A stretch of DNA of 64,000 nucleotides, taken from positions 11,922 to 75,921 of the forward strand of contig JANQNG010000002.1 in assembly GCA_028279685.1 (NCBI GenBank), written 5' to 3'. This DNA comes from Candidatus Nanoarchaeia archaeon. Its GTDB lineage: Archaea > Nanobdellota > Nanobdellia > Woesearchaeales > SKIA01. Below the pieces are notes generated by a model. The model saw only the letters and a list, made by a program, of their open reading frames with translations, was not told the origin of the DNA and made no database searches. Numbering within the stretch: position 1 is the first letter of the stretch; each line of letters opens with the position of its first letter. Below, one piece after another: positions 32,811 through 58,852 of this stretch. Made by a program: the position numbers and the translations under genes.

Positions 32811-32811
32811 T

Positions 32812-38574: not shown

Positions 38575-38700
38575 CCATACCTCTCACAGCCTCTAAAAAT
38601 AGGAATTGAAGCTAGTTTATATCTCTGCTTTTCTATCGCTTTCTATGTTTATAAAATTTACTACTTTTTAGTAGTTTCTTAATTATTTTCCATATAGAAT

Positions 38701-39501: not shown

Positions 39502-39543
39502 TTTATAAAGTTTTCCATTTTTATTCCTGATTGGTAGTAATAA

Positions 39544-42183
39544 TTACGAAGGAACTATCGCTAAATCAATCTGACTATACTCCAACGTATCTCTATCTAT
39601 CAAGTATCTCTTCCCCACATCTGAGACAATAACGCCTTGCTCTGTAGGAACAATATCAAATCGAGGATAAGCTACAACACTCTTTTCTCTTTGTGCAAAC
39701 AGCCTTCTTCTAAATCTATCAGTCAGTATACCTTTATCTATAAAATCAAGAAACATTACCTCAATCTCTTCCCTCTTTTCAGAATATTTTTCTTTCGAAA
39801 TTCCAAGCATATGAAGCAATAAATACCAATTACGATTAAGAATCACATGATACTTTTTTACACACTCATTCATATCAAACCCAGAATCATACATAAGTTT
39901 CATTTCCCATCCATCAACATGCACATCATATTTTCCAACATAAGAATCAGGAATATCTTCTTGGATAAAGAAATGAATCTCTTCAGGAGAATATCTTAAC
40001 TTCTCTTTGAGAATCGTATTCTTGAAAATATATTTTTCTGCTTTTTCAAGAGGAACATTGTTATTCATAAAATAGGCAAGCGCATACAAATCAAAATCAG
40101 GGTGTTTCTTTTCAAGTATTTCTGATGGAAGTTGCTCATTGATGACTTGCCCTATTTTTTTCTTATCACTATCTTCTAAATACTTAACAATCCACTCATC
40201 CTCTCCACAATCATCATCCTTTAGCAAATATTCTATGCGTCCTTCATATTCAGGATGTCTTTTGGCTATAATATTATCAGATCCTACCGCTTTACTAACA
40301 ATCTCCTCAACATTCTCAGGAATGTAGTCAGCATATTCGAGCAATTCATACCATTCAAACATACGTTTCACTTCACGAATTTTCTCAATAGAAGGTTGCT
40401 TCCAAAGATCGTCATAAATCATATACAAGATTATTTTCTTCAAAGATTTTTGTTTTCCAGGAAAACTTATTCTGTCCTTAACAAAAGAAGCTGACCAAAA
40501 CATATTATCTCTTTCATATCGACTTTCTCCAAAAGGAGCATCCATGATTTTTTTAATATATTCTTCTGAAAGACGACCTAATGAATATGCCTTTTCTCTT
40601 TCTTCCCGAACATCATCTTTATAATCATCAGTACTATCAAATTCCTCGCTGAACAAATTATGAGTTGTCGCTAATTTGTAAAGAATTAATCCTAAGGAAA
40701 GAAGATCATTATTACCACCATACGCACGATTCAATGGATGAATCTCTTCAGGATTAGTTGTAGCTGCTCCTAAATCAATCAAAGTAGCGTTCATTGTTTT
40801 TTTATCATACATAATATTAAGAGGATGAAGATCTCTATAATAGAGCCCTCCTTCTCTAAGTTCTTCAAATCCAAGAATCACTCCTAACCCTACATTTAAT
40901 ATGTCTTCCTCTTGTAAAGGTTCAGGAGAAATATATTCTGTTCTCCAATTCCAGCCTAATTCAGGAGTTAATGTTTCAATGAGAGGTCTCCCTTCTACAT
41001 GCTTAAGAACTAACATACCTTTCTCTTTATCATATCGCTTACATTGAACAACATGCTTCGCATTCGGAATTCTTTGATAAAAACTGAATTCTTCATCAAG
41101 ATCATCACCAAATTTGTACGCTTCTTTGTTGAAAGGATCAATTAGCACATATGTTCCAGAACCAGGATGAGTAATATCGAGTAATGTATCAAGATCCTCT
41201 CCTTTTATCGCTCTTCTAAGTTCTTTCCGTATCACACTTTTTAACCTTGTAAAAAAATACTTAGAAGGACTTATTCCTCTTTGAGACAGCATTGGAAATA
41301 TTTCCAATTGATTAGCAATTCTGCCAAAGTACGTTTTATGAGAAGGAAGTTCATTATCGCAGTCCAGTTTATTCCAGATATCTATCACCTCTTGGATTTG
41401 CTGAGCATTCATAAATGCAGAAAGTCTTAGTGTAGAACGGAAACGATCAAAATGTATTTTTCTATCAAACTCATGATCATATGGATCATGAGGATCTCTC
41501 TGCCAATCCACATGACAAACGCTAAAAAATGATTCATTCTTTTCAAGAAGTTTATTGAATCTTTTAATTGCCTGTTGATTATAATCAGTCATCAATACAT
41601 TCATTCTCCCAAGGATACGTTCAACAACAGTTAATACATCCATATGCTCAGTTTTGTATGCAACATCGATAGCCTGTTGAAGAATATTTTTTATTTCAGG
41701 GACAGCCATAAGACCCATCCAATGTTCATGAATCTCACCCATATGATCAAATTGTTCAAGAACCTCTTTATAGTACGTACTTGTTTGTTCCTCAGCAAAT
41801 GCTTTTCTTTCTTCTTCTGTTTCTAGATCATACATCTTGACTATATCAAAAGAAATAAATTCTGTATCGGAATAATGATGAAAATGATATGCCATTTTAT
41901 GACCTATTCTATCAATAAGAAGAGGTTCATCATGATATAACTCAAGTATTTGTATGTATTGATCTTGAAGTTTAACATTATTTGGATATCGATCAAACCA
42001 TCTCATCCAATCAACAGCCCATTCAAATAATTGTTCCTTATATCTATCTTCATAGTAATCTTTCATCTCTTCGAAAAGAACCGTTAAAGCAGAGGTAAAA
42101 CGTTCTTTTTTTGTTTCTTCTAGAACTAATTTCTCAAGAGGTGCAATATCTTTAACATGCAATGAAATTTTTTCAATACTCAT
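39544..42183 (-). CDS. large protein with a central atypical protein-kinase-like domain
   Basis: YYRDLHPLNIMY (HRD-loop variant) and IDLGAATT (DFG variant), followed by NRAYGGNNDL, which is shared with the 42180..43979 kinase; 879 aa. Confidence 0.55.
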   Translation of the reverse strand: MSIEKISLHVKDIAPLEKLVLEETKKERFTSALTVLFEEMKDYYEDRYKEQLFEWAVDWMRWFDRYPNNVKLQDQYIQILELYHDEPLLIDRIGHKMAYHFHHYSDTEFISFDIVKMYDLETEEERKAFAEEQTSTYYKEVLEQFDHMGEIHEHWMGLMAVPEIKNILQQAIDVAYKTEHMDVLTVVERILGRMNVLMTDYNQQAIKRFNKLLEKNESFFSVCHVDWQRDPHDPYDHEFDRKIHFDRFRSTLRLSAFMNAQQIQEVIDIWNKLDCDNELPSHKTYFGRIANQLEIFPMLSQRGISPSKYFFTRLKSVIRKELRRAIKGEDLDTLLDITHPGSGTYVLIDPFNKEAYKFGDDLDEEFSFYQRIPNAKHVVQCKRYDKEKGMLVLKHVEGRPLIETLTPELGWNWRTEYISPEPLQEEDILNVGLGVILGFEELREGGLYYRDLHPLNIMYDKKTMNATLIDLGAATTNPEEIHPLNRAYGGNNDLLSLGLILYKLATTHNLFSEEFDSTDDYKDDVREEREKAYSLGRLSEEYIKKIMDAPFGESRYERDNMFWSASFVKDRISFPGKQKSLKKIILYMIYDDLWKQPSIEKIREVKRMFEWYELLEYADYIPENVEEIVSKAVGSDNIIAKRHPEYEGRIEYLLKDDDCGEDEWIVKYLEDSDKKKIGQVINEQLPSEILEKKHPDFDLYALAYFMNNNVPLEKAEKYIFKNTILKEKLRYSPEEIHFFIQEDIPDSYVGKYDVHVDGWEMKLMYDSGFDMNECVKKYHVILNRNWYLLLHMLGISKEKYSEKREEIEVMFLDFIDKGILTDRFRRRLFAQREKSVVAYPRFDIVPTEQGVIVSDVGKRYLIDRDTLEYSQIDLAIVPS

Positions 42184-43979
42184 GATTTATACCTCTCGAA
42201 CATCGCTTTTGCTTCAATAACATCTTCTAACTCAGGTTGCACCCACAAATCACCATCCAACAAATCAACAATAATATCGGCCAACACAGAATCAGCAACA
42301 TCCTCACGAATTTTACACAAATACTCCTGCAACAACTCAGGATCATCATACACTTCCTCTCTCTTAGTTTTAACACCTTTCTTCACAACACTATAACAGG
42401 TGAATCCAGGGCCTTCATTAAACAAATTACGACCAGTAGCCATCTTATACATCAACTGACCAACACTAATTAAATCATTATTACCACCATAAGAACGATT
42501 CAAAGAATGAATCTCAGAAGAATCAGTAGTCGCAACACCCAAATCAATTACAACAGCACGATCTTTTTTCTCATCTATGAGTATATTCCTATCGTGTATG
42601 TCTCTATGATAAATTCCTACTTCTCTTAACTCAATAATCCCATTAATAACATCTTTAGTGTAGGAAAATGTTTTCTCTATTAGGAAAGGCTTTCTGCTCA
42701 AAAGCTTCTTCTCTAATGTTTCTCCAAAAATGCGCTCTATCTTTATTGCTAGATTATGCTCCTGTATCGATCTTTTAGCATAATCTGGTTTGTCCAACAG
42801 CCTAACAACATTTGATTTTTCCTTTTGTTTCTTTCGAAGCAACTCTAATAATTCATATTCATGATCAATACCATATGAGAATTTCCAACTAATATCTTCT
42901 TCATTAAAAATAAATGATTCTCCTCCTGAAGCAAATAAACTTAATGTCTTGTAAAGTGTATTAAAAAAAACTTTCGATTCAACTATATCTTCAAGTAAAT
43001 AAGATAAACCTTGGCTTTTATATTCTTTATACCCATCATAATTTATACCTAAATGCCGAAGCATTCTAAGCTGCATTAACCCCAAAGTATTCCTTTCGCT
43101 GTAAAATCCATTCGCTTCTTCAGGAGTATATCTTTCTGAGAAAAAATATTCAAACTTTTCAAAATCATTTAACATTTCATACTTTTGAACATATTCTGGA
43201 GAAATATTTTCATTTATAATTTTCAATATTGTATTCGAAGTAATAGTATTTTTTTTAGAGCGAAATCTTATATCAGTTTCAAACATAAATTTTCTTATAT
43301 TTTTTACCGATTGAACATTATTATCTTTTCTAATATCAAAATCTTTTCTTCGTCTTTTTAGTAATGAAAGAGCAGCATTATGCATTTCCTTACTAGTAAG
43401 AGGCTTCCTATTCTGATAAATAGAAGGGTTTTGATTAAGATGAACTTTTATTATTTCATCTGCTTTTTCAGCAGAAACATTATTTTCTATCAACTCAAAT
43501 ACACTATGCGGAGTTATTCGAGAATCATAAATATTAACTTCCCGAGCTTTGACACCATTAAGAACACAATTTAGTATCTGATACGCATCAAACCTTTTAC
43601 TATACTGATTTATGTGACTCGGAAACTTTCCAAGCTTTCTTAAGAGAATTAATATATCTGATCGTCTATTAACAACATCATTAGCACGTCCAAAGATTTC
43701 TTGTTTCATTTGCAGCATTTCATAAGCAATTCCCCCAGCATGATCCTCTCTATGAGCTAACTTTTCAAGTAAACTTTCAAGGCCTACTCGTTTTCCCCTA
43801 AATCTTTTCCCATACGCATTTGCGGTAGAAGGAGGTATTTTATTCTTATAGAGAAAGACAATATCTTCTCCTTCAAATTTATGATGATATTCATTAAAAG
43901 CAACAGGAGGTATGTTGAATTCTTTCATTATTTCTTCATTTGACATAAGCATTAATCTTATTGATTCATCACTATTCAT
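42180..43979 (-). CDS. protein kinase with N-terminal Y-x-x-R-F repeats (paralog of 36457..38574)
   Basis: IYHRDIHDRNILI, VIDLGVATTD and NRSYGGNNDL. N-terminal YGKRFRGKRV / YSKRFDAYQI repeats. The stop overlaps the downstream start. Confidence 0.65.
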   Translation of the reverse strand: MNSDESIRLMLMSNEEIMKEFNIPPVAFNEYHHKFEGEDIVFLYKNKIPPSTANAYGKRFRGKRVGLESLLEKLAHREDHAGGIAYEMLQMKQEIFGRANDVVNRRSDILILLRKLGKFPSHINQYSKRFDAYQILNCVLNGVKAREVNIYDSRITPHSVFELIENNVSAEKADEIIKVHLNQNPSIYQNRKPLTSKEMHNAALSLLKRRRKDFDIRKDNNVQSVKNIRKFMFETDIRFRSKKNTITSNTILKIINENISPEYVQKYEMLNDFEKFEYFFSERYTPEEANGFYSERNTLGLMQLRMLRHLGINYDGYKEYKSQGLSYLLEDIVESKVFFNTLYKTLSLFASGGESFIFNEEDISWKFSYGIDHEYELLELLRKKQKEKSNVVRLLDKPDYAKRSIQEHNLAIKIERIFGETLEKKLLSRKPFLIEKTFSYTKDVINGIIELREVGIYHRDIHDRNILIDEKKDRAVVIDLGVATTDSSEIHSLNRSYGGNNDLISVGQLMYKMATGRNLFNEGPGFTCYSVVKKGVKTKREEVYDDPELLQEYLCKIREDVADSVLADIIVDLLDGDLWVQPELEDVIEAKAMFERYKS

Positions 43980-43991
43980 TCAACATACCCC

Positions 43992-46694
43992 TCAATCATT
44001 ATTTTTGAACGGACCGCTCATATCAAATATCTTCCCCCTGCAACTATTGTTAGTTTCATCAGATTCTCTATAATTATTATCAGAATCTACTATAAAACAA
44101 AAAGACAATAAAGCATTGCCATGCTTTTCATAATATTGTTTAACTTTATCAAATGGAACATACGGTCCTAGATACATTTGATCTTTATTTCCAGGTTCTA
44201 AGGAAATCTTACTATCCAACATTAAATCTATTTCAGGAATCCCAAATTTTATCGGAATATTTTCTAAATAATATGGACTATCATTGTAAAAATTAGCTCT
44301 AACTTGATACATAAAATGCTCTTCTCCAGATCTACTAGGACTAAAAGTCTCATAACTGTATGGATCTGCCCTTAAATCAATAGGTTCATCAGAAACATTT
44401 AATCCACCTACACACACCTCACTTTTCCTACCATCACTTACAGAAAAAACAACATGATAATAACCATTATGCTGAGAATTTGGGGTAAATGTAAACTTCT
44501 TCCCTTGACTAATCACTCTCGTACTATCTGTTAATAAAGTGACATTCGAACCTAAGGAAATATGCTCTTCAAAAACATCTTCTCCTTCTTCTTTCTCTTG
44601 AAGAACAACCCATTTATAATACAACGAATCACCATCCAGATCTTCGACATTAGCTGCAAAATTTATTGGAACTCCTATTGGAACATCAGGATAAGGATCT
44701 CCTTTAAAGAAACGTTCAGGAAATACAGTAATAATACTTGGAGAATAATTACCTTTAACTAAAACATTCCATTCTTGAGTCGATTCAAATACACCATCAT
44801 TTACCACACACTTTACTCTGTGGTTACCAGGATCAATAACCTGAAAATCTAGTTTTACCCTGTCTTTATCATTTGAAAGAGGAACATTATCAAGAAACCA
44901 AGAAAATGAAACATCATCTCTTGATATAAGATCAACCAGAGAAAAATATGCTTCGTCACCTTTTCCAAATTTATGTTTAAGCCTATATGGTCTAAGCTCA
45001 TCTTTTACATCTACCTTAAATTCAACAGGTTTATCTTTCTCTGAAGTCTCAAAAAACCTTTTTTCAGGTTTATATGCATCAATACGAGGAGCTCTATTTT
45101 CATATGATATAAAAATTATTTTCGTATAAATATCTGCTAATCTATCTGAAACAGTTCTTGTCGAAGAAGTATCAGTTTCCATCTGTGCATTTCGTATAAA
45201 ATAAACAATCTCATCATTTTCCTGTCTTTTCTTAAAATCAAATGAGAATCCATATACATAATGACTGCTTTTATCTCTTCTAAGAAACTCAGCCTCTTGC
45301 TTCTTCTTAAGAACACCATTCAATATCCAATAACACGTAGCTCCTTCAAGATTAGCAGAAGTAATTAAAATTTCAGGAAGATCATCTGCCAAACAATACA
45401 TTGGCTGTTCAAATGTTTTTACTGCTTTATTTCGCTCATTTCTTAAAGCCAAATTAGTCGTATCGCTTTGATCATCCCAAATCCATTTAACATAAGAAGT
45501 GTCAGCTCCTCCTTCTATTATAAAATTTTCACCACCATCATTAAAATAAGATTCAAAAGTAGGATATTTATTTCTAAACTCTAGAGCATCTTCAATCCAA
45601 CCTCGTTCATTAGCACGCCATTTTTCATATTCTTTAATTATTCTATTTCCTTCAAATCTTCTCCAAGAAGCATCTCCTGTCAAAAACAAGCCATACAATG
45701 CTGCTGAGCCCAGAAGTATATAAGCAGGAATCTTAATTTTATTCCAAACAGCTTTTCCTATCTTTCCAAAGTTTATTTTTTTTAACTTTCTTCGAAAGCG
45801 ACGTACTTTTCCAAAATCTCTTCCCAACTCACCAACACTTTGAAATCGCTCATCAGGGTCGTAGCGAAGACATTTTCTTAATATTCTTTGAATTCTTTTA
45901 TTTTTTATTCCTTCAAGCTTTCTCTCTAAACTATCATAACTCTTAGGATTATTCAAAACATCTTTCATTTCAGATTTCTTCTCGCATTGGAAAGGGCGTT
46001 CTCTCAGGCAAAGTTCATACAACAACACTCCTAACGACCAAACCTCTGAACGCGCATCAAATTTACCATCAAGCGTTTCAGGTGCTTGATATTCTCTATC
46101 ACCAGAATAGTCTCCTGTAATATCATCACCCATAGCAATACCATAATCAACAACCTTCACCAAACCAGATTTTTCAAGCATAATATTCTCTGGTTTAATA
46201 TCCCTATGAAAGAATCCAGCATGATGAATAGCAGCTACTCCTTTAGTAGTTTGCGAAAATATTGAAACAATCTCACCAAGAGATAATTCCTTCTTTCGCT
46301 CTTGCAAAGAAAGAAGTGTCTCTCCACGAATAATATCAAACAATAAACCATCTACCTTTCTTTCCCTTTCTATCCCATCATTCTCTTCAACAATAGTAAT
46401 ATCATTAATATTTGCTCTATAATTTGCAAGATTAGGATGTTTCAGCATTGAAAGCACATAACCTGTTCTTGATTCAACTTGAGAAAGATCTATTCCTTCT
46501 TTTCTCCTAACTCCTTCAAGCATACGATACGCATTTGAACTATCTCTCAAAGGATTTCCTGGAATAATTTTTAGAGCAAAGATATTATCTTTATTCTTAT
46601 CATCCTGAACTTCAAAGTAATTTCCCGTAGCACCTTCTCCTAATCTCTCAATAACATTATATCCAGGTGCTTCCACGGAAATAATTCTAATCAT
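43992..46694 (-). CDS. transmembrane receptor-like Ser/Thr protein kinase with a large extracytoplasmic beta-rich (Ig/PKD-like) domain
   Basis: N-terminal canonical kinase: GEGATGNYF (Gly loop), ALKII (VAIK Lys), HRDIKPENIML, VVDYG (DFG) and APETL (APE). A single TM helix lies at ~aa 323-341, followed by an ~550-aa extracellular region. Confidence 0.85.
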   Translation of the reverse strand: MIRIISVEAPGYNVIERLGEGATGNYFEVQDDKNKDNIFALKIIPGNPLRDSSNAYRMLEGVRRKEGIDLSQVESRTGYVLSMLKHPNLANYRANINDITIVEENDGIERERKVDGLLFDIIRGETLLSLQERKKELSLGEIVSIFSQTTKGVAAIHHAGFFHRDIKPENIMLEKSGLVKVVDYGIAMGDDITGDYSGDREYQAPETLDGKFDARSEVWSLGVLLYELCLRERPFQCEKKSEMKDVLNNPKSYDSLERKLEGIKNKRIQRILRKCLRYDPDERFQSVGELGRDFGKVRRFRRKLKKINFGKIGKAVWNKIKIPAYILLGSAALYGLFLTGDASWRRFEGNRIIKEYEKWRANERGWIEDALEFRNKYPTFESYFNDGGENFIIEGGADTSYVKWIWDDQSDTTNLALRNERNKAVKTFEQPMYCLADDLPEILITSANLEGATCYWILNGVLKKKQEAEFLRRDKSSHYVYGFSFDFKKRQENDEIVYFIRNAQMETDTSSTRTVSDRLADIYTKIIFISYENRAPRIDAYKPEKRFFETSEKDKPVEFKVDVKDELRPYRLKHKFGKGDEAYFSLVDLISRDDVSFSWFLDNVPLSNDKDRVKLDFQVIDPGNHRVKCVVNDGVFESTQEWNVLVKGNYSPSIITVFPERFFKGDPYPDVPIGVPINFAANVEDLDGDSLYYKWVVLQEKEEGEDVFEEHISLGSNVTLLTDSTRVISQGKKFTFTPNSQHNGYYHVVFSVSDGRKSEVCVGGLNVSDEPIDLRADPYSYETFSPSRSGEEHFMYQVRANFYNDSPYYLENIPIKFGIPEIDLMLDSKISLEPGNKDQMYLGPYVPFDKVKQYYEKHGNALLSFCFIVDSDNNYRESDETNNSCRGKIFDMSGPFKNND

Positions 46695-47269: not shown

Positions 47270-47308
47270 TGATTTTCTGAAAATCTTCTGGATAAATCAG
47301 GAAAATCA
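47270..47308. promoter_or_regulatory. inverted repeat TGATTTTCTGA...TCAGGAAAATCA upstream of the Lrp promoter
   Basis: Seen directly. A minus-strand TATA-like ACATATAAAG (47252-47260) lies about 30 nt upstream of the Lrp start at 47225. Confidence 0.3.
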
Positions 47309-48493
47309 TCTTCTTAGGACATATTTGTTATTTTTCGGACGAGGAGATACAATTTTCTTTTCCCCTCTTGCTGTCTTCATATACATACTTTCATTCATTT
47401 CAATGCGAGGTATTCTATTCTTATTACAATAACCGAAGTTTGCTGAATAAGCAATCCCTTCCCATGCATGAAAACTAGCATCATAATACTCTAATACAAG
47501 CTCCCATTTCTCTAATGCCTCTTGAGAAATAATCTTACTCTGTCCTTCAGGTAAACTTCCTCCTGGAAACGCAAATATATCACTAATTCTTGAAGGATCA
47601 TCAACGCAACTCTCTAATGCGTTCTTCGTCATTTCAAATTCTTTTCTGATCTGTTCAGGCGATGCATGCTCTAGTCGTACATGGTGATAAGTATGATGTC
47701 CTATATTGAACCCCATATCAAGCAGTTGATTAATCTTCATAGCACCAAATCCTTCCTGGCAAAAAGGTTCTTCATATGATCCATTGAATGCTTTATCGTT
47801 ATTAGCAAAATCTATGAAGAAAATCCCTTTCAATCCCCAATCTGGATGCTTTTTATTGAATTCCTTCATAAGAGAGACAGCACAATGTTCATCAAGCATA
47901 GGCTCTCCTGACTCCTCATAAAGAGGCTCATCTCCGTTAATGATATACTCCATCTGTCCTCTATTAGCATCATCAAAGGTTAAAAGAATTGGTCTTGTTC
48001 CTTCAGGAAGATCATAACTATTGGTGATAAACTCTTCATAACTAATTGGTCTAAATCCATATCGATAATAGGTTTCAAGATGATTCCAAAAGCTTTCCGG
48101 ACTTGTTGTGTAATTATCACCATGATGATCATCAATGACATGATACATCGGAATAGGAATGGTTGTTATGTTCGGATTGCGTTGAGATGTAATCACCATA
48201 GAAGGCGTTTTCCGATGAATAGGATCTTGTCTTAATTTCCAAGCCCATTGGAAATCAATAAATTCCTGATAATCAACAGGATTGATAGTGCAGACCACTT
48301 GCGTATCCGAGGAAGCATACAATGTAGAATCAATCATTGGACGGACAATCTCAACATAGAAAGACTTGTTGGAAAATAATTTTTCTTGAACATCGTTATT
48401 GTGAATAGTAGCATCGTGAGCAAATAAAGTTGTTGTACCTAACACAAACGCCAGTGCTGCTCCAAAGATTCCTTTTTTTATTACATTCATCAT
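47306..48493 (-). CDS. secreted polysaccharide deacetylase (NodB homology/CE4 family)
   Basis: Signal peptide; LLTFDDA (TFDDG motif), HHTYHH His motif. Confidence 0.75.
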   Translation of the reverse strand: MMNVIKKGIFGAALAFVLGTTTLFAHDATIHNNDVQEKLFSNKSFYVEIVRPMIDSTLYASSDTQVVCTINPVDYQEFIDFQWAWKLRQDPIHRKTPSMVITSQRNPNITTIPIPMYHVIDDHHGDNYTTSPESFWNHLETYYRYGFRPISYEEFITNSYDLPEGTRPILLTFDDANRGQMEYIINGDEPLYEESGEPMLDEHCAVSLMKEFNKKHPDWGLKGIFFIDFANNDKAFNGSYEEPFCQEGFGAMKINQLLDMGFNIGHHTYHHVRLEHASPEQIRKEFEMTKNALESCVDDPSRISDIFAFPGGSLPEGQSKIISQEALEKWELVLEYYDASFHAWEGIAYSANFGYCNKNRIPRIEMNESMYMKTARGEKKIVSPRPKNNKYVLRR

Positions 48494-49374
48494 AATGTAT
48501 TCACTTGAAGATATTGTTTATGTTCTATAAGCTCAGGAGGCATCCTGATACGCTCTTTCTTGTATGGTGTAAAATTAGAAGGATCTCCACTCTTTGTTCT
48601 TCTCTTCTTATAGACTTTGTTGAATTTGCTATTGAACTCAAAGATATCATCATAATATTCTTCATCGCCTGCAACTTTTTTTGCAATAGCTCTGAGCGAC
48701 TCCTTACCAGTTGCCTCATAATATTCTCGAGGAATATAATCTTCAAGCGATTTCTTTTCTCCCGAAGTAAAACTATATTGCACAACCTCTGACTTGTTTT
48801 TCACTATGTCGGAAGGGATCCTTAGTATCTGCGCTTTCTCAATCACATTAGATTTCAGTTTATTGTGATCATAGATTCTTTTCCAAAGACTTCCATCTCC
48901 TGATATTTTCTTTGCAATCATAACAAGATATTCATCAGGCTGCACAACATAGAGATGTTCTTTCCTTGCTGTGTTGATAGGAATTGCAGGTGCTATCTCT
49001 TTTGGAGAAGGCTTCTTTGTCGTTTGCATGGGAACAGTATTTTGTTTCTCTTCTTTTTTTCTCAATAAAGTATACTCTCCCTTAAGACGCTTATGCTCAT
49101 CCTTGATGCTGTCTTTCTCAGCCTTCAAACGATCATACTTTGCCTGAACTTCCTTTGCACGTTGTTTCTCAATTTGATATTCCGTCAGATAAGTCCTTGT
49201 AGTCTGTACAACTTCTTTCTCATCAAATTTATTATTGATCCATATTCCTCCTGTGACTCCTCCTGCAATCAGCAAAGCAGTCATAACTACTCTTCCAAAA
49301 CGCCTCTTTTTCTGTCTAGAACCCATCCTATTTCCAGGACTTTCATGAGGTTTATTATCTGCGAAGAATCTCAT
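48490..49374 (-). CDS. membrane-anchored LysM-domain protein with a coiled-coil
   Basis: TM helix VMTALLIAGGVTGGIWI, a coiled-coil, and LysM-like YVVQPDEYLVMIAKKISGDGSLWKRIYDHNKL...ILRIP. Confidence 0.55.
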   Translation of the reverse strand: MRFFADNKPHESPGNRMGSRQKKRRFGRVVMTALLIAGGVTGGIWINNKFDEKEVVQTTRTYLTEYQIEKQRAKEVQAKYDRLKAEKDSIKDEHKRLKGEYTLLRKKEEKQNTVPMQTTKKPSPKEIAPAIPINTARKEHLYVVQPDEYLVMIAKKISGDGSLWKRIYDHNKLKSNVIEKAQILRIPSDIVKNKSEVVQYSFTSGEKKSLEDYIPREYYEATGKESLRAIAKKVAGDEEYYDDIFEFNSKFNKVYKKRRTKSGDPSNFTPYKKERIRMPPELIEHKQYLQVNTL

Positions 49375-50627: not shown

Positions 50628-51334
50628 TCTTTGATTTGTAATTCAACTATGCCATTAATCTTATGTAGTGCATTAAGTCCATCTTTCTTGATATCGATAT
50701 TATGTGCATTGAATACTTCATCAACCATTGTTATTCTTTCTTTTACACTATCACATAATCCGTTCACATCACTATAAGCGGGATGAATACGAAGAAGATA
50801 GTCACACAACACCACCATGTGATGCTCTTCAGCAGAGATCTTTTCTAAGTACTTATCAAATGAAAGCTGAACATATTTGTGAATAACATTCTCTGCCATC
50901 TCCTGTTCAATTGATTTCATAGGCTGCCTTCCGCCACGCTGTACTCTTCTGATAAAATTATTGAGCTTCTTTGAGCATGATTGAGCAACATAAGCTGCCC
51001 AATAAGAGGGAGATATGTGTTGTTCCAGAAAATCATAGAGCTGCTTATCTCCATACTCCTGAGCATAGACATCAGACATGAGTAATACTGCTGTGTTCTT
51101 TGAAAAATCAATTTTATCTACATCCAAATGCTTAAGATAATATTTTGATAATAGATGTTCCTCTAATGTAAGCCCCTCTTCTGAGCACTTCTTCGTTGGT
51201 TCAGCTATAATGCCTTGTTCGAAAGATATCTTTCTTTGATAAACACCTCTAGGAATTCTTTTTCCTTTACCCTGTACTTTAATATTATGAGATCTTGCTT
51301 TCAGTAGCTGTCTTACATCAACCATAGCTTTCAC
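50624..51334 (-). CDS. hypothetical protein
   Basis: 236 aa ORF; overlaps both neighbours. Confidence 0.5.
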   Translation of the reverse strand: MKAMVDVRQLLKARSHNIKVQGKGKRIPRGVYQRKISFEQGIIAEPTKKCSEEGLTLEEHLLSKYYLKHLDVDKIDFSKNTAVLLMSDVYAQEYGDKQLYDFLEQHISPSYWAAYVAQSCSKKLNNFIRRVQRGGRQPMKSIEQEMAENVIHKYVQLSFDKYLEKISAEEHHMVVLCDYLLRIHPAYSDVNGLCDSVKERITMVDEVFNAHNIDIKKDGLNALHKINGIVELQIKE

Positions 51335-52628
51335 TCGATTTAGTTTTTTTAATACCTTTACCTGATTTTTTCGAAATCTTTCCGGATTTCTTCATAATTC
51401 GTCTAATTTTCTTCAATTTAGTTGCATGTTTTTTCTTTGCATATCTGTTCTTACTAAGAATATTTTTCAATTCATTTCTAGTATCTTTCGTTATCTCATC
51501 AAATTCCTCTTTATGCTGCTTGTAAATTTCTTTCATTGCTTCAATACGCTTATCCCATCTCCATATCCTCGTGCCTCTTTCCACATAATCACCTTTTTTT
51601 ATATCTCCGACATTACCACGATATTCTCCTGCAAGTATTTTTGAGACTATTCCAAGCACTCTCTCTCCTTTATTCTCTGACTGTTGTAATTTTTGATAAT
51701 ACTTTGTAATCAATGAACGATATCTTCTCTTTGGTATTTGTTCTTCAGAAAAGGTTTTCTCTTTCAGCACATTCTTCGTCTTAATTTTTGTTTCTAGATC
51801 ATCACCAACTTGCTTTTTTGAATCATCATCATTTTTTCCAACAACTTGATATTCTCCCAGTCTTTTTCCATCTCTACCAATAATCACTCTTTCTTTCAAT
51901 TGAGTCACAATATCTTCTTTTTCCTCATCATCTGGAGTAAAATGACCTTCTTCTATGATATTCAAAGGAATATGTTCATAGCGATTTCTTATTGCTATTC
52001 TCTCTCCTTCTTGAATTTGAGGATACGCTATATTCATTGTCGCATATGGTGTGTCATTATGTTGGTTCATCACAAGACCGTAAGTATACTCAAGATAATA
52101 TTGTTCGCCATCCTCCTGCTCAACAGGAATATCTTTGAACATCCTATAATCAGTAAGAAAATTTTCAAATGTTCTGACATCCCTGCCAGAGAAAAAATTA
52201 GAAAATTTTCCATGAGAATGAGCCCATCCTGCAATTCGTTTATTGAGATTATGTTTAATATCTCTCTCTGATGTAATAGCACCTCCCCCTGATATTGTAC
52301 AATATCCTGGATAGACCGTCTGATCATGTGCAATATACGCATCATTGATAACAGGTTTTCCTTCTCTAACTGTATCTTTCTCCGCAAGAAGATAAATTGC
52401 CATTTCATGCGAAGGTAAATGAGCCTCTTGAGTTATATTCCCAAATGCACTAATAATATGTTCAAGTTTTTCTTTCGCATAAGCTGTTATATTAATTCCT
52501 TCAGCAGCAAAAGCATTAGCATGCTCTCTTATTTCAGCATTTTCCTCATCAACAGTAGTATATCCAAGCATTATTTCACCTTCTTGCATTACGTTCAACA
52601 TAGATTCGTTGAGGTAATTCCGTAGCAT
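51318..52628 (-). CDS. JAB/MPN (JAMM) metalloprotease-domain protein with a long C-terminal extension and Lys-rich tail
   Basis: Complete JAMM motif: E (SHEMAIYLL) ... HSHGKFSNFFSGRD (HxHx7Sx2D). The C-terminus is KKKHATKLKKIRRIMKKSGKISKKSGKGIKK. Confidence 0.75.
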   Translation of the reverse strand: MLRNYLNESMLNVMQEGEIMLGYTTVDEENAEIREHANAFAAEGINITAYAKEKLEHIISAFGNITQEAHLPSHEMAIYLLAEKDTVREGKPVINDAYIAHDQTVYPGYCTISGGGAITSERDIKHNLNKRIAGWAHSHGKFSNFFSGRDVRTFENFLTDYRMFKDIPVEQEDGEQYYLEYTYGLVMNQHNDTPYATMNIAYPQIQEGERIAIRNRYEHIPLNIIEEGHFTPDDEEKEDIVTQLKERVIIGRDGKRLGEYQVVGKNDDDSKKQVGDDLETKIKTKNVLKEKTFSEEQIPKRRYRSLITKYYQKLQQSENKGERVLGIVSKILAGEYRGNVGDIKKGDYVERGTRIWRWDKRIEAMKEIYKQHKEEFDEITKDTRNELKNILSKNRYAKKKHATKLKKIRRIMKKSGKISKKSGKGIKKTKSSESYG

Positions 52629-54057
52629 AACTCATAGGACCATCAATGACATTTTTCATTGAATTATAATCAAGTACATGAATCATCTCTCCAACCATGG
52701 CTGCAGCGATAATTTCATTAGACATTACTACACTAGGATTAGGACCATCGCAAATATTTCCCCCTTCTGGAAAACCTTCAAGATCTAGTTGATCTCCTAT
52801 TGAAGAAGTTACACCAGGTATATAGACAGCAACTTGCCCTGCTTTTGGATGTGTTCCTCCATCTATATAAGGTACGTTGTGTTTTTTAGTGAATGTATTC
52901 ATCCAAATTCTTGCATGCTTATTATCTACACATCCAAGCACCACATCATATTGCTTTTTAGTAAGTTCCTTTTCAGAAATTAATTTTATATTCTCTCTCT
53001 TATCTTCTCTAGAAAGCACATCTCCTAATTTTCCATTATAGACATCTGATTTTATCTTATGATCTATATTGCGAACACGCATAGAAAGCACTTCAGCCTT
53101 ATTGTGTCCGATGAAATTTCTCAATTCTGTCTGTCTATTAAGATTTTTGTGTTCTGCAACATCATAATCAACAAAATCAATCCTGCCAATTCCAAGATAG
53201 CGTAAATAAATCGAAGCCCAATTTCCTAATGCTCCCGCACCAACCACCAGCACATTATTCTTTCTATAAGTCGGAAGATTATTCTTTCTTAGATTAGATT
53301 TTAATCCTTTTCTATTCTTACTATATAAGTTATAGATAAGACGATGATTACTTGGAAGATGAGCATCATCATCGTTATACTTAAATGCATATTTCCTCAC
53401 TTCTTCAACAGCTATACCAGAAACAATTCCACTTGTAAAGCCTCCTTGATCCTTTCCATTGAATTCCTCATGTACAAGAGCATCAAGATCAGGATTCTCT
53501 TTAAGCACATTTACTCTTCCTTTATTCTTTGGCCAATAGCAAGCAATAGCGCTTCTATCTTCATCTGATGATAACGAAATAACAGGTATAGGGTTGTTCT
53601 TTCTCCTAAATGCGTAGCGAAGCACTTTTTCTTTCGAAACAACTTCATTTGTAGCATCGATAAGTATATCTGGGTTAAACCCCATGATAAACGCTTCAGC
53701 AAATCTACCATGTCTTTTGATCGTTGGAGGTGTATGGTCAATTTGATGTAATGCCTCAAAAACCATATCACTCTGCTTTTTTCCTGCAATTTTTTCTCTC
53801 TTTCCATAGAGAAATCCTTTGTCTTTTGAAGTAACTGAACGTGAATTATCAAAATAATAAATATTCCTAACACCTAAACCATAAAGTGATGCAAGCACCA
53901 TTTGCCCAAGCAAATTAGTACCCACTACAGCCACTTTTAGCTTATTTACCATCTCCTGCCTTTCATTACCCAGCATACCATCTCCGAATGCAACACTATT
54001 ACAAACATGAATTTCAGAAACCGCATCTACGTCACCCATTCGCATCGACCCCCACAA
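52576..54057 (-). CDS. E1-like (ThiF/MoeB/UBA-family) activating enzyme with two tandem Rossmann/adenylation-like domains
   Basis: The C-terminal active-type domain has VLVVGAGALGNWASIYLRYLGIGRIDFVDYDVAEHKNLNRQ. The N-terminal degenerate domain has VAVVGTNLLGQMVLASLYGLGVRNIYYFDN. Its start overlaps the upstream JAB gene. Confidence 0.75.
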   Translation of the reverse strand: MWGSMRMGDVDAVSEIHVCNSVAFGDGMLGNERQEMVNKLKVAVVGTNLLGQMVLASLYGLGVRNIYYFDNSRSVTSKDKGFLYGKREKIAGKKQSDMVFEALHQIDHTPPTIKRHGRFAEAFIMGFNPDILIDATNEVVSKEKVLRYAFRRKNNPIPVISLSSDEDRSAIACYWPKNKGRVNVLKENPDLDALVHEEFNGKDQGGFTSGIVSGIAVEEVRKYAFKYNDDDAHLPSNHRLIYNLYSKNRKGLKSNLRKNNLPTYRKNNVLVVGAGALGNWASIYLRYLGIGRIDFVDYDVAEHKNLNRQTELRNFIGHNKAEVLSMRVRNIDHKIKSDVYNGKLGDVLSREDKRENIKLISEKELTKKQYDVVLGCVDNKHARIWMNTFTKKHNVPYIDGGTHPKAGQVAVYIPGVTSSIGDQLDLEGFPEGGNICDGPNPSVVMSNEIIAAAMVGEMIHVLDYNSMKNVIDGPMSYATELPQRIYVERNARR

Positions 54058-55388
54058 CCATTATTGTAATATTCTCTTTCATATGTTTTGATAAGATTTA
54101 GCATAGACTCACAAACATCTCTTTTCTGCTCGAGTTTCTTAATTCCGATCACCCAACCAGGAAATACATTATTACTTATCCTTCCATTAATCAAATCATG
54201 AACATCATCAATATATTTTTTCTTTGGCACTAATACATCTAATAATTCATTGAATCTTGTATCAAGAATTGAAGTCTGTTTATTGCGGTGGTCTTTATCA
54301 GACATAATGACGGTTTGTGCATCACATATAACACCATAGACTTCCTCTATTGGATTAAAAGAATTAACCCCTTTGATATTATTAAAATTATGAGAAACAA
54401 TATTTGTTGCTTCATGAATTCTTTTATAGATCGAGTCATAAGTACTATTAAAAAAATCTAATTGTTTTTTCTTATGAGAATTTGTCTTTGCAAATTTATC
54501 TTCTTCTACATACAACGTTCTTTCTCTATTGAAAATTCCTGCTGGAATACCTTTTTTCTTGACCAGATTTTTATCTCTAGTAACAATTATGCGTTCTCTA
54601 ATCTGATTGACCCTTGATTTAATCTGCTGATCAATATCTTCTGTTTTAATACAAGGCACTTGCTCTTCTTCGATCTCTTCAAAAGGAACATTTTCAATTA
54701 GTGTAATTCCATTTCCCTTAGAGTAGCCAATTACTGTAAATGGCCTATCATTATCAGCATTGAATACCATTCCATATGTGTATTGCACCTCTGCAGAACC
54801 GTAAGACATAACTGTTAAAGGATGATTCTTTACCTTCTTAAGATCGAACTTATCAAAAAAACTGGAACGAACCATCTTCTGTTTATTTGGTTCCACTTGA
54901 AGATACGTTTTCCCCTTGTGTTTTACAAAACGCACATCGTCTTCTTTTTCAGTTTCTTGCATTTCAACATCAAGAAACATCTTATTGTCTTCGAGAAAAT
55001 AATTGAATGTTTTTCTATCTCTTTTTGAAAAGAAAGTGGAAATATCCCCATGCGAATGCCCCCATCCAACAACACGCATTCTTAGATTATTCTTGATATC
55101 CCTCATAGAAGTAATCAACCCATCACCTGATATAATACAATAATCAGGATACGCCTCTTGATCATGGGCAATATAGACATCACTAATAAGAGGTCTGTTC
55201 TTTTTTGCTTCTTCTTTTGTAGCAAGCATCAAAAATCCTATCTCATATGTTGGCAGACTTAAAGAAGAACAAATTGCTTTCACTCTTCGTGCAATAAGCT
55301 CACTTTTCATTTTTGCACGAGAAGTAATCCTGATAGGCGAGATCATGCTTTCAATCTTTTTATCTAATGTTGTCTCCCTCATTTTCAA
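54027..55388 (-). CDS. JAB/MPN (JAMM) metalloprotease-domain protein, paralog of 51318..52628
   Basis: VVGWGHSHGDISTFFSKRD is a perfect HxHx7Sx2D. It shares the context DVYIAHDQEAYPDYCIISGDG with DAYIAHDQTVYPGYCTISGGG in the paralog. Confidence 0.75.
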   Translation of the reverse strand: MKMRETTLDKKIESMISPIRITSRAKMKSELIARRVKAICSSLSLPTYEIGFLMLATKEEAKKNRPLISDVYIAHDQEAYPDYCIISGDGLITSMRDIKNNLRMRVVGWGHSHGDISTFFSKRDRKTFNYFLEDNKMFLDVEMQETEKEDDVRFVKHKGKTYLQVEPNKQKMVRSSFFDKFDLKKVKNHPLTVMSYGSAEVQYTYGMVFNADNDRPFTVIGYSKGNGITLIENVPFEEIEEEQVPCIKTEDIDQQIKSRVNQIRERIIVTRDKNLVKKKGIPAGIFNRERTLYVEEDKFAKTNSHKKKQLDFFNSTYDSIYKRIHEATNIVSHNFNNIKGVNSFNPIEEVYGVICDAQTVIMSDKDHRNKQTSILDTRFNELLDVLVPKKKYIDDVHDLINGRISNNVFPGWVIGIKKLEQKRDVCESMLNLIKTYEREYYNNGCGGRCEWVT

Positions 55389-56695
55389 TTCTTAAAGATT
55401 CTTTCCTCAGATATACCATGTTTTTTTGCATAGTCTTTTGCATCATCCTCATTTAACGCAATAGGAGTATAATTAGAGATGCTATGCACAGGAGTCAGCG
55501 TATTACCAATATATCCTGTTGTAATATTTCCTGTTGCTTCCCAGAGCATAAGTGCAACTCTTCGTGCTAATCCTTTATCTTTTATAGAATACTTATGAAG
55601 AAACTTAACATTAAGGTAAGACCATCTTTCCGCACCTGCAAAACAAATTCTTCCACTTGGATAGACAAAAGGATGATTATATGGCATATCACGTAATGTC
55701 GGCTCATTCTTAATAGTAACATATCTATCAGTAATATCTAGTGTTGTACCTACTCGAACACGTTTACTTCCTTCTTTTCCTTCTTCATTGAATGCATAAT
55801 ATTTCCCATCCTTCTCAAGCAAATAAGGCTCAATCTCTGCATAGAACAAATACTCATTATTGCCTCTAGGTTCATATCTTATATTACCTACTTTCTTTCG
55901 AGTTTTTTTTACTTTTTTTTTAGAAATATTTGCATCAATTTCTTTTTCTTTTTTATACAATAATAAAATTTGATTCTTAAATTTTTTACCATGTTGCAAC
56001 GCAACTTGTTCTACATCTGCACGAAGACGCAATCTATATTCATCTGCTAGCTTCTGAAGAGGCATTAATGGCTTAAGCGAATAATCTGTTCCTTTGAATG
56101 TTAAAGTTCCGTTTCTTCTAGCTTTAGAAGAAATAAGTTCATAACATGTACCAGCAATAGTCACAATACCTGGACGAGGAATTAAATCATAAATACGCGT
56201 TTCTATGTTATGTAAGTCATCTAATGCAGGATAACTATTTATTGCTGTATCGATCTTAGGATCTTCAATAACAACTTCCTTCTTTTTTTCTCTTTGATAA
56301 TTATAAATCTTAAAAACATCTTGAATAAACCTATCAAGAGATTGCTCTTTCATAGAACCATAGTAATTTATTTTTTTCGAAACTTGTGAGGATAGTTCTT
56401 TGAGTCTTCTAATAAGTTTAAAATCAATAACCCAACTCATATACTCCTTAAGATCATCTTCATTATCTTTGAATAATTCTCTCTGAAAAAGAGAAAGCTC
56501 ATCAGACTCAAAGAGAGGATATTGCTCCTTAAGATATTTCCATGCATTACCATTTGCTGAAGGAGTATTCCTTTCAATAGTATAGATACGAGAATCTAAC
56601 AACGCAAATGTTTCTCCAGACATCATGAACTTATCTAATATTGTTGGAGCTAAACAAATCTCTTTTTTCATAATACCCCCTCTACAAAAAAGCAC
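55385..56695 (-). CDS. large protein with a C-terminal ubiquitin-conjugating-enzyme (E2/UBC)-like domain
   Basis: MPYNHPFVYPSGRICFAGAERWSY matches the UBC active-site signature HPN[IV]xxxGxIC[LF]xxLxxxW, including the catalytic Cys. The N-terminal ~300 aa has no assignable domain. Confidence 0.5.
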   Translation of the reverse strand: MLFCRGGIMKKEICLAPTILDKFMMSGETFALLDSRIYTIERNTPSANGNAWKYLKEQYPLFESDELSLFQRELFKDNEDDLKEYMSWVIDFKLIRRLKELSSQVSKKINYYGSMKEQSLDRFIQDVFKIYNYQREKKKEVVIEDPKIDTAINSYPALDDLHNIETRIYDLIPRPGIVTIAGTCYELISSKARRNGTLTFKGTDYSLKPLMPLQKLADEYRLRLRADVEQVALQHGKKFKNQILLLYKKEKEIDANISKKKVKKTRKKVGNIRYEPRGNNEYLFYAEIEPYLLEKDGKYYAFNEEGKEGSKRVRVGTTLDITDRYVTIKNEPTLRDMPYNHPFVYPSGRICFAGAERWSYLNVKFLHKYSIKDKGLARRVALMLWEATGNITTGYIGNTLTPVHSISNYTPIALNEDDAKDYAKKHGISEERIFKN

Positions 56696-56704: not shown

Positions 56705-57184
56705 CTAATCACAGAGCTTGTCCTCAAGGTTCACATACGCTGATGTTCCTCCAGGCACACTTCTTCTGGCAATAAAATCAATCAATTTATACTTCTCTTT
56801 AGCGTTGGTTTCAGAATCAATTTCTTCCTTTGTTCTAATAATCGAATCATATTCAGCAACTCGACCATCTAAATCCAAAGGTATTGGTTCTCCATTATCA
56901 ACTATTGCCTTGATCGAGACCTTGTAGTTATCAGGATCCGCATTCATATCTCTGAACCATTTACTCACTGTATTTGCTACATCTCTTTCTTCCGCATTGT
57001 ACGCTTCATTCAATGCATCTGCTTCTGGATCGATAAGTTTTCTAATCAAATCCTCCACAGTTCCTTCAAGATAAGTCTGTTCAACTTTCTTCACCAGTAA
57101 GACACCCTCATCATTGTCCTTTATCGGGACCATAGCATCAAGAGTGACATATATTGGCTTGTCATCCATAATATCAACCTCCAA
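56705..57184 (-). CDS. small acidic protein; candidate ubiquitin-like modifier precursor (internal Gly-Gly followed by a 13-aa tail)
   Basis: The ORF is robust: 159 aa, the first gene after a hairpin+T8 element, immediately upstream of the E2-like gene. The Ubl call itself is inferential. It rests on the ...ARRSVPGG|TSAYVNLEDKLCD C-terminus and beta-strand-like segments (KPIYVTL, YKVSIKAIV). Confidence 0.3.
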   Translation of the reverse strand: MEVDIMDDKPIYVTLDAMVPIKDNDEGVLLVKKVEQTYLEGTVEDLIRKLIDPEADALNEAYNAEERDVANTVSKWFRDMNADPDNYKVSIKAIVDNGEPIPLDLDGRVAEYDSIIRTKEEIDSETNAKEKYKLIDFIARRSVPGGTSAYVNLEDKLCD

Positions 57185-57266: not shown

Positions 57267-58211
57267 TTACATTCTATATTTCTTTCCTTGTGCAATATGC
57301 ATTAAGCGTCTTCCTATGAGTCTATTGAAATCATGCATATTCTCAAAATCAGGATGATCAAAGAATTTCCGGTCAATAACTCCGTATCTCCCATCACAAT
57401 CACATTCAATCACATAATTGTTTCTCTCGTGATCCTGTACAATATCAACCACACCAATATCAAATCCAACAGCATCTGCAGCCTGCAAAGCAATCCTCCT
57501 GAGATCTTCTGATGGCTCCATAAACACATAATGCGCTCCTCTAGCGATATTGATAATAGCTTCGCCAGGAGTATTAACATGTTCCTTTTCTCGTATGGTT
57601 CCAAAAGGCACCTCGTCTCCTAGCACATACATTCTCAATACACTTTTGTTAAAATCCCCATTATCTCCTATATATTCTTGCAGAAGATAAGGAGCAGCAA
57701 TAACAGAATCACCTATCTCAACATATCTTTCCTTTTCTACAATATCATATTTTCCTTCGTTATTATAAGCTACATAATTACCATGCTCCTTCATCAATAC
57801 AAAATGCTTATTTCCTGCACAATCATAAGGATACTTCAGCATAGCAATATCTCTTGTACTCATGAAAACATCTATCGCCCTCTTATTAGAGCAAAGCTCA
57901 AAGAAAGGATGGGAAATGTTGTTCTTCTTGAATAACTCATTAGATTTTATTTTATTCATGGCAATCTCTTGAGCACTATATGCGTTTATAATGGGCGTCC
58001 TCTGAGACCACCTCTCAAAATCGAATTTTGGACCGTGCATCATCATATAAGCAACATCATATCCTTCTAGCAGTTCTACATTCCCTTCTGTAAGACGATC
58101 ACATACAAACCCTTCCCTACGTATAGTCTGCTGAAGAGGCTCTACAAAATGTACATCATAATACGTATCTTTCCCCGCAATAATAGCAAATTTCAAACTG
58201 ATCCCCTCCAT
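57267..58211 (-). CDS. ATP-grasp amidoligase (RimK/glutathione-synthetase-like)
   Basis: MLKYPYDCAGNKHFVLMKEHGNY, LLQEYIGDNG...LRMYVLGDEV, and VGFDIGVVDIV...YVIECDCDG (ATP-grasp C-terminal VLEVN-type motif). Confidence 0.6.
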   Translation of the reverse strand: MEGISLKFAIIAGKDTYYDVHFVEPLQQTIRREGFVCDRLTEGNVELLEGYDVAYMMMHGPKFDFERWSQRTPIINAYSAQEIAMNKIKSNELFKKNNISHPFFELCSNKRAIDVFMSTRDIAMLKYPYDCAGNKHFVLMKEHGNYVAYNNEGKYDIVEKERYVEIGDSVIAAPYLLQEYIGDNGDFNKSVLRMYVLGDEVPFGTIREKEHVNTPGEAIINIARGAHYVFMEPSEDLRRIALQAADAVGFDIGVVDIVQDHERNNYVIECDCDGRYGVIDRKFFDHPDFENMHDFNRLIGRRLMHIAQGKKYRM

Positions 58212-58852
58212 TCTTCATACCAATGACTCGCCTCTCCATCAAGCAATACTTTTACTTCTTTATGTTTGACATCATACGTGTGATAAGCAGGATCAATAAA
58301 AAGATCTCCTGGTTCAAGATCAACCCAAGCACATGCGTGTTTTACATTTCTTCCAAAACAATCTACTTTTACACTAGTGTAATGACTTGTTAATCCTACT
58401 GTTCTTGCCATAACAACATACAAGTAAGCCATCTCTCCACAAACACCTTCACGATCACGCATTACCTCTTCTGCATTCTTATATCCATTGGTTCTCATTG
58501 ATTTTCCATAATCTATATTATTCTGCATCCAATCAAAAATACTTCTTGCTTTCTCTTGTAATGTAGAAAGTTGTATTACTTCTTTCTTTAGAAAGTTAGC
58601 AGCATTCACAGGCATGCCAAAAGGACTCTGTATGGTATCATCAACAATAAGCACTCTGTAATTACTGTTGATCTTGCTTAAGTCAAGAGTAGTATCTATC
58701 TGTTTCCTTTTCTTGAGCTTAAACCGAATATGAGATGTATCATCACAATAAGGATTAACCTGCGTTCTTCTTTTTTTCAGCGATTCTCTGATAGTACTAT
58801 CATTGTGCATTCTTCCATGAAGCTTTCGCTTAATAAGTACATTAAGAGTCAT
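58193..58852 (-). CDS. transglutaminase-like cysteine peptidase-fold protein
   Basis: GVCGEMAYLYVVMARTVGL (catalytic Cys context of the transglutaminase-like core), with downstream His/Asp candidates (HACAWVDLEPGDLFIDP). Confidence 0.6.
   Translation of the reverse strand: MTLNVLIKRKLHGRMHNDSTIRESLKKRRTQVNPYCDDTSHIRFKLKKRKQIDTTLDLSKINSNYRVLIVDDTIQSPFGMPVNAANFLKKEVIQLSTLQEKARSIFDWMQNNIDYGKSMRTNGYKNAEEVMRDREGVCGEMAYLYVVMARTVGLTSHYTSVKVDCFGRNVKHACAWVDLEPGDLFIDPAYHTYDVKHKEVKVLLDGEASHWYEEWRGSV

Follow-up and report, generated by a model that had tools for sequence, protein, structure and literature searches.

Among prokaryotes, the one described precedent for an activating enzyme (E1) that joins an inactive to an active adenylation domain is BilD of the bacterial Type II BilABCD system (Ensifer aridi, PDB 8TYZ), which also carries a helical CYS domain (Chambers et al., 10.1101/2023.09.26.559546). 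In the same system, the BilC peptidase trims BilA, which has a C-terminal Gly followed by a short tail, and the authors argued that bacteria were the first to evolve full ubiquitination pathways (10.1101/2023.09.26.559546). The homodimeric Bub E1 lacks a Cys, and all known E1s are said to have this residue either on the crossover loop itself or within a helical domain that interrupts the loop (PMC11601596). How eukaryotic E1s came to pair an inactive with an active domain and to acquire a mobile Cys domain is an open question; BilD, its sole prokaryotic precedent, is bacterial and already has the Cys domain. So far, a layout of genes for a ubiquitin-like modifier (Ubl), a conjugating enzyme (E2), a JAB peptidase and an E1 with dead and live adenylation domains has been described only in bacteria. 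Here we analyze a gene for a two-domain E1-like enzyme (positions 52576–54057, minus strand) in a 64,000-nucleotide stretch of a Candidatus Nanoarchaeia archaeon genome (contig JANQNG010000002.1), hereafter the window. Quite likely, its product is the activating enzyme in an operon for ubiquitin-type protein tagging, carried by an archaeon of the DPANN type. An earlier note, made from the DNA letters alone, had assumed that prokaryotic E1s are only homodimers of single-domain subunits; that premise is outdated because BilD has both an inactive and an active adenylation domain (8TYZ; 10.1101/2023.09.26.559546).

The gene is a single uninterrupted open reading frame (ORF) of 493 amino acids with a TTG start; the database copy of the protein (P0001) has 489 residues and begins at an ATG at 54045, four codons downstream of the TTG. 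Pfam ThiF covers the whole protein in two stretches (1.7e-42). The C-terminal half is the active adenylation domain (AAD; residues 257–490, nt 52588–53289 and, like every part of the gene located below, on the minus strand), to which ThiF aligns with 115.8 bits when this half is scanned alone. The domain contains the nucleotide-binding GxGxxG loop GAGALGN (residues 273–279, nt 53221–53241), the segment DYDVAEHKNLNRQ (residues 297–309, nt 53131–53169) with the ribose-binding Asp297 and the N305/R308/Q309 box, and the segment GCVDNKHAR (nt 52909–52935) with Asp378, the Mg-binding Asp of E1s, and Arg383. G273, G275, G278, D297, N305, R308, Q309, K320 and D378 are invariant in all 24 aligned homologues. 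The same residues are nearly invariant across 142 full-length representatives of 50%-identity clusters, 522 of which were detected at E<=1e-30 in a hidden Markov model (HMM) search of 1.84 billion representatives. Judging by these positions, the C-terminal half keeps all the residues that define an adenylating E1. In a subgroup of homologues (P0010–P0013 and P0016), the AAD has an insertion of 40–50 residues between positions corresponding to window residues ~340 and 350 (alignment columns 509–560), which is outside the crossover loop.

The N-terminal half is the inactive adenylation domain (IAD; residues 29–250, nt 53308–53973). It has the ThiF fold with a degenerate G-T-N-L-L-G motif, which is part of VVGTNLLGQ (residues 44–52, nt 53902–53928) and is followed by IYYFDN (residues 66–71, nt 53845–53862), and it has Thr136 at the position of the Mg-binding Asp; the NLNRQ (Arg/Gln) box is absent from this half. 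When scanned alone (residues 29–248), it matches Pfam ThiF with 32.8 bits (E 4.9e-8, profile positions 10–223 of 238), above the cut-off of 28.1 bits. Moreover, a profile–profile comparison (hhalign) of the N-terminal with the C-terminal halves of 24 family members gave a probability of 99.3% (E 1.5e-20, 202 columns). Taken together, these two results place the ThiF likeness of the N-terminal half well beyond chance. We rejected the alternative that this half is an unrelated Rossmann domain of the dehydrogenase type: ThiF passes its cut-off, whereas 2-Hacid_dh_C, the best match of that type (12.9–15.8 bits against a cut-off of 25.1), and VanH fall far below theirs. The earlier note described an E1-like enzyme in which the first of two adenylation domains is degenerate and the second intact; Pfam matches to both halves and residue tables bear this out, and the motifs quoted there (GAGALGN, DYDVAEHKNLNRQ, GTNLLGQ and YYFDN) are all in their places. 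The position of the Mg-binding Asp is occupied by Thr or Ser in 132 of the 142 representatives, and G46, K142 and R221 of the N-terminal half are invariant. Since the half is conserved as a domain and these residues do not vary, it looks like a maintained structural partner and not like decaying sequence.

The search for a Cys downstream of the active domain led to Cys436 (nt 52750–52752), the candidate catalytic residue, which lies in a crossover loop of 31 residues (413–443, nt 52729–52821). Its motif, N-I-C-D-G-P-N-P-S-V, follows the final strand of the C-terminal half and precedes the final long helix. The Cys occupies the same column in 22 of the 24 homologues and is within one position in all of them; among the representatives, 141 of 142 have a Cys in the crossover segment, and the sole exception has no aligned residues there. 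As the loop is this short (the median across the 142 representatives is 35 residues), there is no inserted helical Cys domain, and none of the SCCH or CYS type was seen in the crossover loop of an AlphaFold2 model of the enzyme. The model, based on the 24-sequence alignment, shows two Rossmann-type domains at a predicted local distance difference test score (pLDDT) of 89.3 and a predicted template modelling score of 0.91. Within the crossover loop, its sole low-confidence stretch, residues 432–437, contains Cys436. A C-terminal UFD is absent from the model, and the protein ends ~30 residues past the last AAD helix. A Foldseek search of the PDB with this model returned UBA7, UBA6 and UBA1, the canonical single-chain eukaryotic E1s (E ~1e-21, query TM-score ~0.65). 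As far as the predicted structure can tell, BilD is the top structural match. Because the fold comparison returns two-domain E1s, the two domains are predicted to pack as a MoeB-like pseudo-dimer, in the same way as in BilD and eukaryotic E1s.

The E1 gene belongs to a series of genes on one strand whose frames overlap or nearly abut and which encode, in order, a 356-residue protein, a transglutaminase-like protein, a RimK-type ATP-grasp protein, a 159-residue protein, a 436-residue protein, a JAB peptidase (453 residues), the E1, a second JAB peptidase (436 residues) and four further proteins. The 159-residue protein (56705–57184, minus strand), encoded three genes upstream of the E1, is a putative Ubl precursor. 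Its sequence ends with VPGG146 and a 13-residue tail, TSAYVNLEDKLCD (nt 56708–56746). Gly146 is near-invariant, and in most of ten aligned orthologues it is followed by a variable tail of ~1–13 residues. The protein is a candidate Ubl and may have a β-grasp fold. Both JAB/JAMM metallopeptidases have the complete E...HxH...S..D JAMM motif, invariant in ten orthologues. In the first (54027–55388, minus strand), the motif comprises E49 and H111-S-H113...S121..D124 (nt 55017–55058); the second (51318–52628, minus strand) has HSHGKFSNFFSGRD at residues 137–150 (nt 52179–52220) and a basic C-terminal tail.

The 436-residue E2-like protein (55385–56695, minus strand) has a C-terminal domain (residues ~271–436) with the motif H341-P-F-x7-C351 (HPx7C; nt 55643–55675), whose His and Cys are kept in 23–24 of 25 orthologues. 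In an alignment with UbcH5b, the spacing of 10 from His to Cys is the same as that between HPN and Cys85 in that enzyme. The sole PDB neighbours of the E2-like profile in the HPF-Cys region are E2s, aligned at their active sites (E 0.7–1.1), and one orthologue matches Pfam UQ_con at E 0.03. An AlphaFold model of the protein is poor (pLDDT 58 overall, 70–85 in the C-terminal domain) because word-indexed homologue searches gave just 4–5 proteins and the underlying 5-sequence alignment is therefore shallow. On this evidence, the protein is probably an E2, an assignment with moderate support. At one homologous locus (L007) there are three short E2-like paralogues (171–215 residues; 2863–3510, 6215–6730 and 6770–7402) that consist of the C-terminal domain only. 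In one of them, Asp replaces the catalytic Cys (NIIDF), which recalls the inactive UEV-type variants of E2s.

The architecture of the E1 and the composition of the module are both conserved. Except for a few fragments, the best 150 of the 522 clusters span both domains at lengths of 430–580 residues, and a word-indexed search gave ~25 full-length homologues. In GTDB representative genomes, matches covering both domains came from metagenome-assembled genomes (MAGs) labelled Woesearchaeota, Pacearchaeota or Nanoarchaeia, from several 'uncultured Methanosarcinales' MAGs of a bulk submission and from one Patescibacteria MAG; further matches span the active domain only. Relatives of the E1 are found almost only in DPANN genomes. 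A fusion of two ORFs or an assembly artefact was rejected, as the same architecture is present in the 24 aligned homologues, 14 GTDB genomes and the 150 best representatives. At 22 compared loci, the E1 (22/22) is accompanied by the E2-like gene at 21 and by a JAB gene at 19; the Ubl-like gene was detected at 12 by BLAST and at more, making up most of the loci, with an HMM. Many loci lack a JAB gene upstream of the E1, most JAB-bearing loci have one after it, orthologous to the second paralogue, and some have both. In the nearest relatives (L002 and L006), it is the first paralogue that lies upstream of the E1, and some other loci have an upstream JAB-like ORF. The transglutaminase-like gene (58193–58852, minus strand; 219 residues, Pfam Transglut_core E 3.4e-13) lies upstream of the module at 7 of the 22 loci.

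A few observations on individual loci may be added. The RimK-type ATP-grasp gene (57267–58211, minus strand) follows the transglutaminase-like gene here and at one other locus; either this protein or the transglutaminase-like one, which has a Cys-protease fold, might assist the system as a protease or ligase. In a Woesearchaeota MAG (L011, JABJCP010000009.1, about 100–7800), approximately five Ubl-like and three E2-like paralogues lie upstream of a single E1, which suggests that one E1 serves an enlarged set of modifiers and E2s. A contig labelled Patescibacteria (L018, JBNMFJ010000001.1, 6083–11005) has the full module of Ubl-like, E2-like, two-domain E1 and JAB genes, at 28% identity. The presence of the module on a contig of the Candidate Phyla Radiation could be due to horizontal transfer between ultra-small episymbionts, or to mis-binning.

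The earlier note had seen in the two domains an intragenic duplication, which our comparisons do not specifically support. With an HMM of the N-terminal half, unrelated single-domain ThiF proteins taken from other genomes reach a median of 41.5 bits and a maximum of 63.3, which is no lower than the values for the C-terminal halves of the family itself (median 33.9 bits, maximum 47.3). A recent intragenic duplication, which these scores were used to test, is therefore not indicated. The two-domain form would have arisen by ancient duplication or by fusion of two paralogues, two possibilities between which the sequences do not distinguish. An hhalign comparison of this IAD with that of BilD found nothing that would point to a shared origin of the two.

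In the proposed tagging operon, the N-terminal ThiF domain (residues ~29–250), with its catalytic residues lost, would act as a structural partner and take the role of the second MoeB or ThiF subunit, and the C-terminal ThiF domain (residues ~257–490) would bind ATP and Mg. A JAB peptidase would cut the 13-residue tail off the Ubl-like protein and expose Gly146, which the AAD would then adenylate. Cys436, on the flexible crossover loop, would attack the adenylate to give a thioester, and the Ubl would next be handed to Cys351 of the E2-like protein and on to target lysines. The JAB peptidases might also be able to take the tag off. The two-domain architecture, the motifs of both halves, the conserved Cys and the linkage of the genes are shown by the data, whereas we infer the sequence of reactions, the fold of the Ubl, the targets and what the system does in the cell. 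An antiviral role, like that of Bil, is conceivable, and so is a regulatory one; no recognisable defence island was seen in the neighbourhood.

Several points weigh against this assignment. The Ubl-like protein has no detectable β-grasp similarity, as profile searches against PDB and Pfam gave no match. The E2-like protein has Phe where the canonical HPN motif has Asn. A comparison of the E1 with E. aridi BilD by hhalign reached a probability of only 16–25% and involved just the generic ThiF motif. The remaining points concern the window protein itself. In MoeB and UBA1 structures, an N-terminal Arg of the partner domain helps to bind ATP. Where most relatives have Arg, the clade of the window protein has an invariant Cys19 (nt 54001–54003; CN instead of RN/RQ), a variant seen in 10 of the 24 sequences of the family alignment and in only 4 of the 142 representatives. 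Furthermore, the Zn-binding CxxC motif, present in ~80% of the family, is missing from this clade and reads SSIGDQ in the window protein (residues 418–423, nt 52789–52806). Because Cys19 replaces the Arg and the CxxC motif is missing, the activity of the window orthologue appears less certain than that of the family.

How well do other explanations account for the same data? The one that survives best, though still improbable, retains adenylation and conjugation and takes the 436-residue neighbour to be not a true E2 but an adaptor or a target, so that the E1 would transfer the modifier straight to its targets, as in sampylation by SAMP and UbaA. This is difficult to reconcile with the His-x9-Cys pattern, which has the exact canonical E2 spacing and is invariant in 23–24 of the 25 orthologues. 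In addition, all PDB and Pfam neighbours of the domain that look significant are E2s aligned at the active site, and the E2-like gene, present at 21 of the 22 loci, lies directly beside the Ubl and E1 genes.

Somewhat less probable still is an adenylyltransferase for a sulfur carrier or cofactor, of the MoeB, ThiF, UbaA or TcdA type, whose substrate, a small carrier protein or a tRNA base, would be activated for sulfur transfer or cyclisation, with no conjugation and with the N-terminal domain as a built-in dimer partner. The nearest named families of the C-terminal half are indeed ThiF, MoeB, UbaA and TcdA, though all score far under their equivalog cut-offs; UBA5 and MoeB are the top PDB sequence matches (E 9.5e-12 and 4.4e-8), and the short-loop position of the Cys matches that in MoeB and ThiF. 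However, the conserved module has no genes for MoaE, ThiG, ThiS, rhodanese or tRNA modification; the E1 has two JAB peptidases and an E2-like protein with a Cys as its conserved partners instead. Moreover, the window has a separate, ordinary single-domain ThiF gene (8391–9041), and a pseudo-dimeric architecture is known so far only in conjugating E1s (10.1101/2023.09.26.559546). Finally, a peptide-maturation enzyme of the MccB, PaaA or AclA type, with the 159-residue protein as a precursor modified at its C terminus and the JABs as leader or tail peptidases, is highly improbable, as those enzymes align to one domain only and are homodimers with an N-terminal peptide-clamp domain that is absent here, the conserved, folded 134–159-residue protein is unlike the precursor of a ribosomally synthesized and post-translationally modified peptide, and the invariant crossover-loop Cys together with the Cys of the E2-like partner fits a thioester relay.

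Beyond the assignment of this one gene as a tagging E1, it is about an even bet that the enzyme represents a large, undescribed and mainly DPANN family of 'minimal canonical' E1s. In such a family, a fused pseudo-dimer of an inactive and an active domain with a short Cys loop of the MoeB/UBA5 type would be the intermediate expected between homodimeric E1-like enzymes and the E1s of eukaryotes and of BilD. Together with the His-x9-Cys E2, it would form part of a complete archaeal system of Ubl, E2, deubiquitinase (DUB) and E1, separate from those of Caldiarchaeum and Asgard archaea and from SAMP. We found no description of a two-domain E1 in archaea, DPANN included, or of a fused pseudo-dimer with a short-loop Cys in the literature, coverage of which was incomplete, so that an earlier report is possible. 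Three features set the family apart: its archaeal occurrence, with hundreds of clusters, the combination of a fused pseudo-dimer with a short-loop Cys, and an E2-like partner with the canonical His–Cys spacing. It would offer a simpler form of E1, open to biochemical and phylogenetic tests, and would mean that DPANN archaea, which otherwise have little regulatory machinery in their reduced genomes, possess a conjugation system. Should the E2 or the Ubl assignment prove wrong, the finding would shrink to a modest addition to the ThiF superfamily.

The gene content of the window is that of a cellular archaeal genome, with RadA (Rad51 + HHH_5; 26363–27391), archaeal Nre (9157–10362), a TrmB regulator, ArgRS, AspRS and SecD/F. 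RadA, Nre and TrmB identify the host as archaeal, and the E1 is accordingly an archaeal one, as the earlier note had supposed. Viral or plasmid DNA was considered and rejected in view of the housekeeping archaeal genes and the lack of tRNA and Rfam matches in the window. The single-domain ThiF-family gene (minus strand; 216 residues, Pfam ThiF 113 bits) adjoins a radical-SAM gene (7266–8366, minus strand); the genome thus carries a classical E1-like enzyme in addition to the two-domain one. Four successive large genes (36457–46694, minus strand; 705, 879, 599 and 900 residues) each encode a eukaryotic-type Ser/Thr protein kinase domain, in one case along with Ig, PKD or cadherin-like domains. 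The tightly packed gene run that includes the E1 closes with genes for a LysM protein and for a polysaccharide deacetylase with an N-terminal hydrophobic leader (47306–49374, minus strand). Their functions are directed at the cell wall and possibly linked to a host-associated lifestyle; neither is conserved at the other E1 loci. Elsewhere in the window, AspRS (19267–20991, minus strand) has a GAD insertion domain, a bacterial-type architecture in an otherwise archaeal genome, and an arginine deiminase gene lies directly upstream of that for arginyl-tRNA synthetase, with ATP-grasp and M20 peptidase genes next on the same strand (31113–34170, minus strand).

How does the enzyme compare with E1s that have been described? 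Like UBA1, UBA6, UBA7 and the heterodimers NAE1–UBA3 and SAE1–SAE2 of eukaryotes, it pairs a dead N-terminal with an intact C-terminal domain of ThiF fold. The statement that it is built in the same way as eukaryotic E1s is therefore correct with respect to the inactive plus active domain, but does not extend to the helical Cys domain and the UFD. Eukaryotic E1s are ~1000 residues long, against 493 here, and possess FCCH and SCCH half-domains and a UFD, all missing from this enzyme, in which the Cys is in a short loop. In sequence, the AAD is nearest to UBA5, MoeB and ThiF, which likewise have their catalytic Cys in a short crossover loop and with which most family members share the CxxC Zn motif. 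Unlike this enzyme, whose partner is a covalently linked degenerate copy, they have a single adenylation domain and dimerise. With two domains per chain and every NCBIfam match far under its cut-off (ThiF 90.6 against 275 bits, UbaA 55.5 against 450 bits), the enzyme falls outside the MoeB, ThiF and UbaA equivalogs. Haloferax UbaA and the Caldiarchaeum E1 are single-domain enzymes that act as homodimers. What this enzyme has in common with UbaA and with the E1 of Caldiarchaeum subterraneum is the archaeal host and a ThiF-type domain that occurs together with Ubl and JAB proteins (PMC5654768).

The closest parallel is the Bil system. PADLOC gave only Cap2-type E1–E2 models among the 25 matches listed for the E1; its neighbours matched no model of the Bil type or of the E2/JAB families. 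Identity to BilD is 12%, and the E2-like protein gave no match to BilB; because sequence similarity to both is negligible, we do not file the E1 as a Bil member. There are further differences. The crossover loop of BilD holds a helical CYS domain of ~80 residues, whereas here a loop of ~31 residues carries the Cys itself. The N-terminal half of BilD was first taken for an E2 domain, whereas the IAD described here is still recognised by Pfam ThiF. BilB has a Cys...His (CEHH) pattern, in contrast to the His located 10 residues upstream of the Cys in the E2-like protein, which extends to 436 residues through a large N-terminal region. The operon has two JAB genes, the second of them after the E1, and the host is a DPANN archaeon and not a bacterium. 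On the other hand, the gene order Ubl–E2–JAB–E1 is shared with BilABCD (10.1101/2023.09.26.559546), the Gly and short tail of the Ubl-like protein resemble the BilA pattern, and a UFD is absent from both E1s. The enzyme appears to work like a Bil E1 and is structurally closest to BilD, and it represents a minimal, archaeal, Bil-like family of two-domain E1s within what is probably a complete Ubl–E2–DUB–E1 module.

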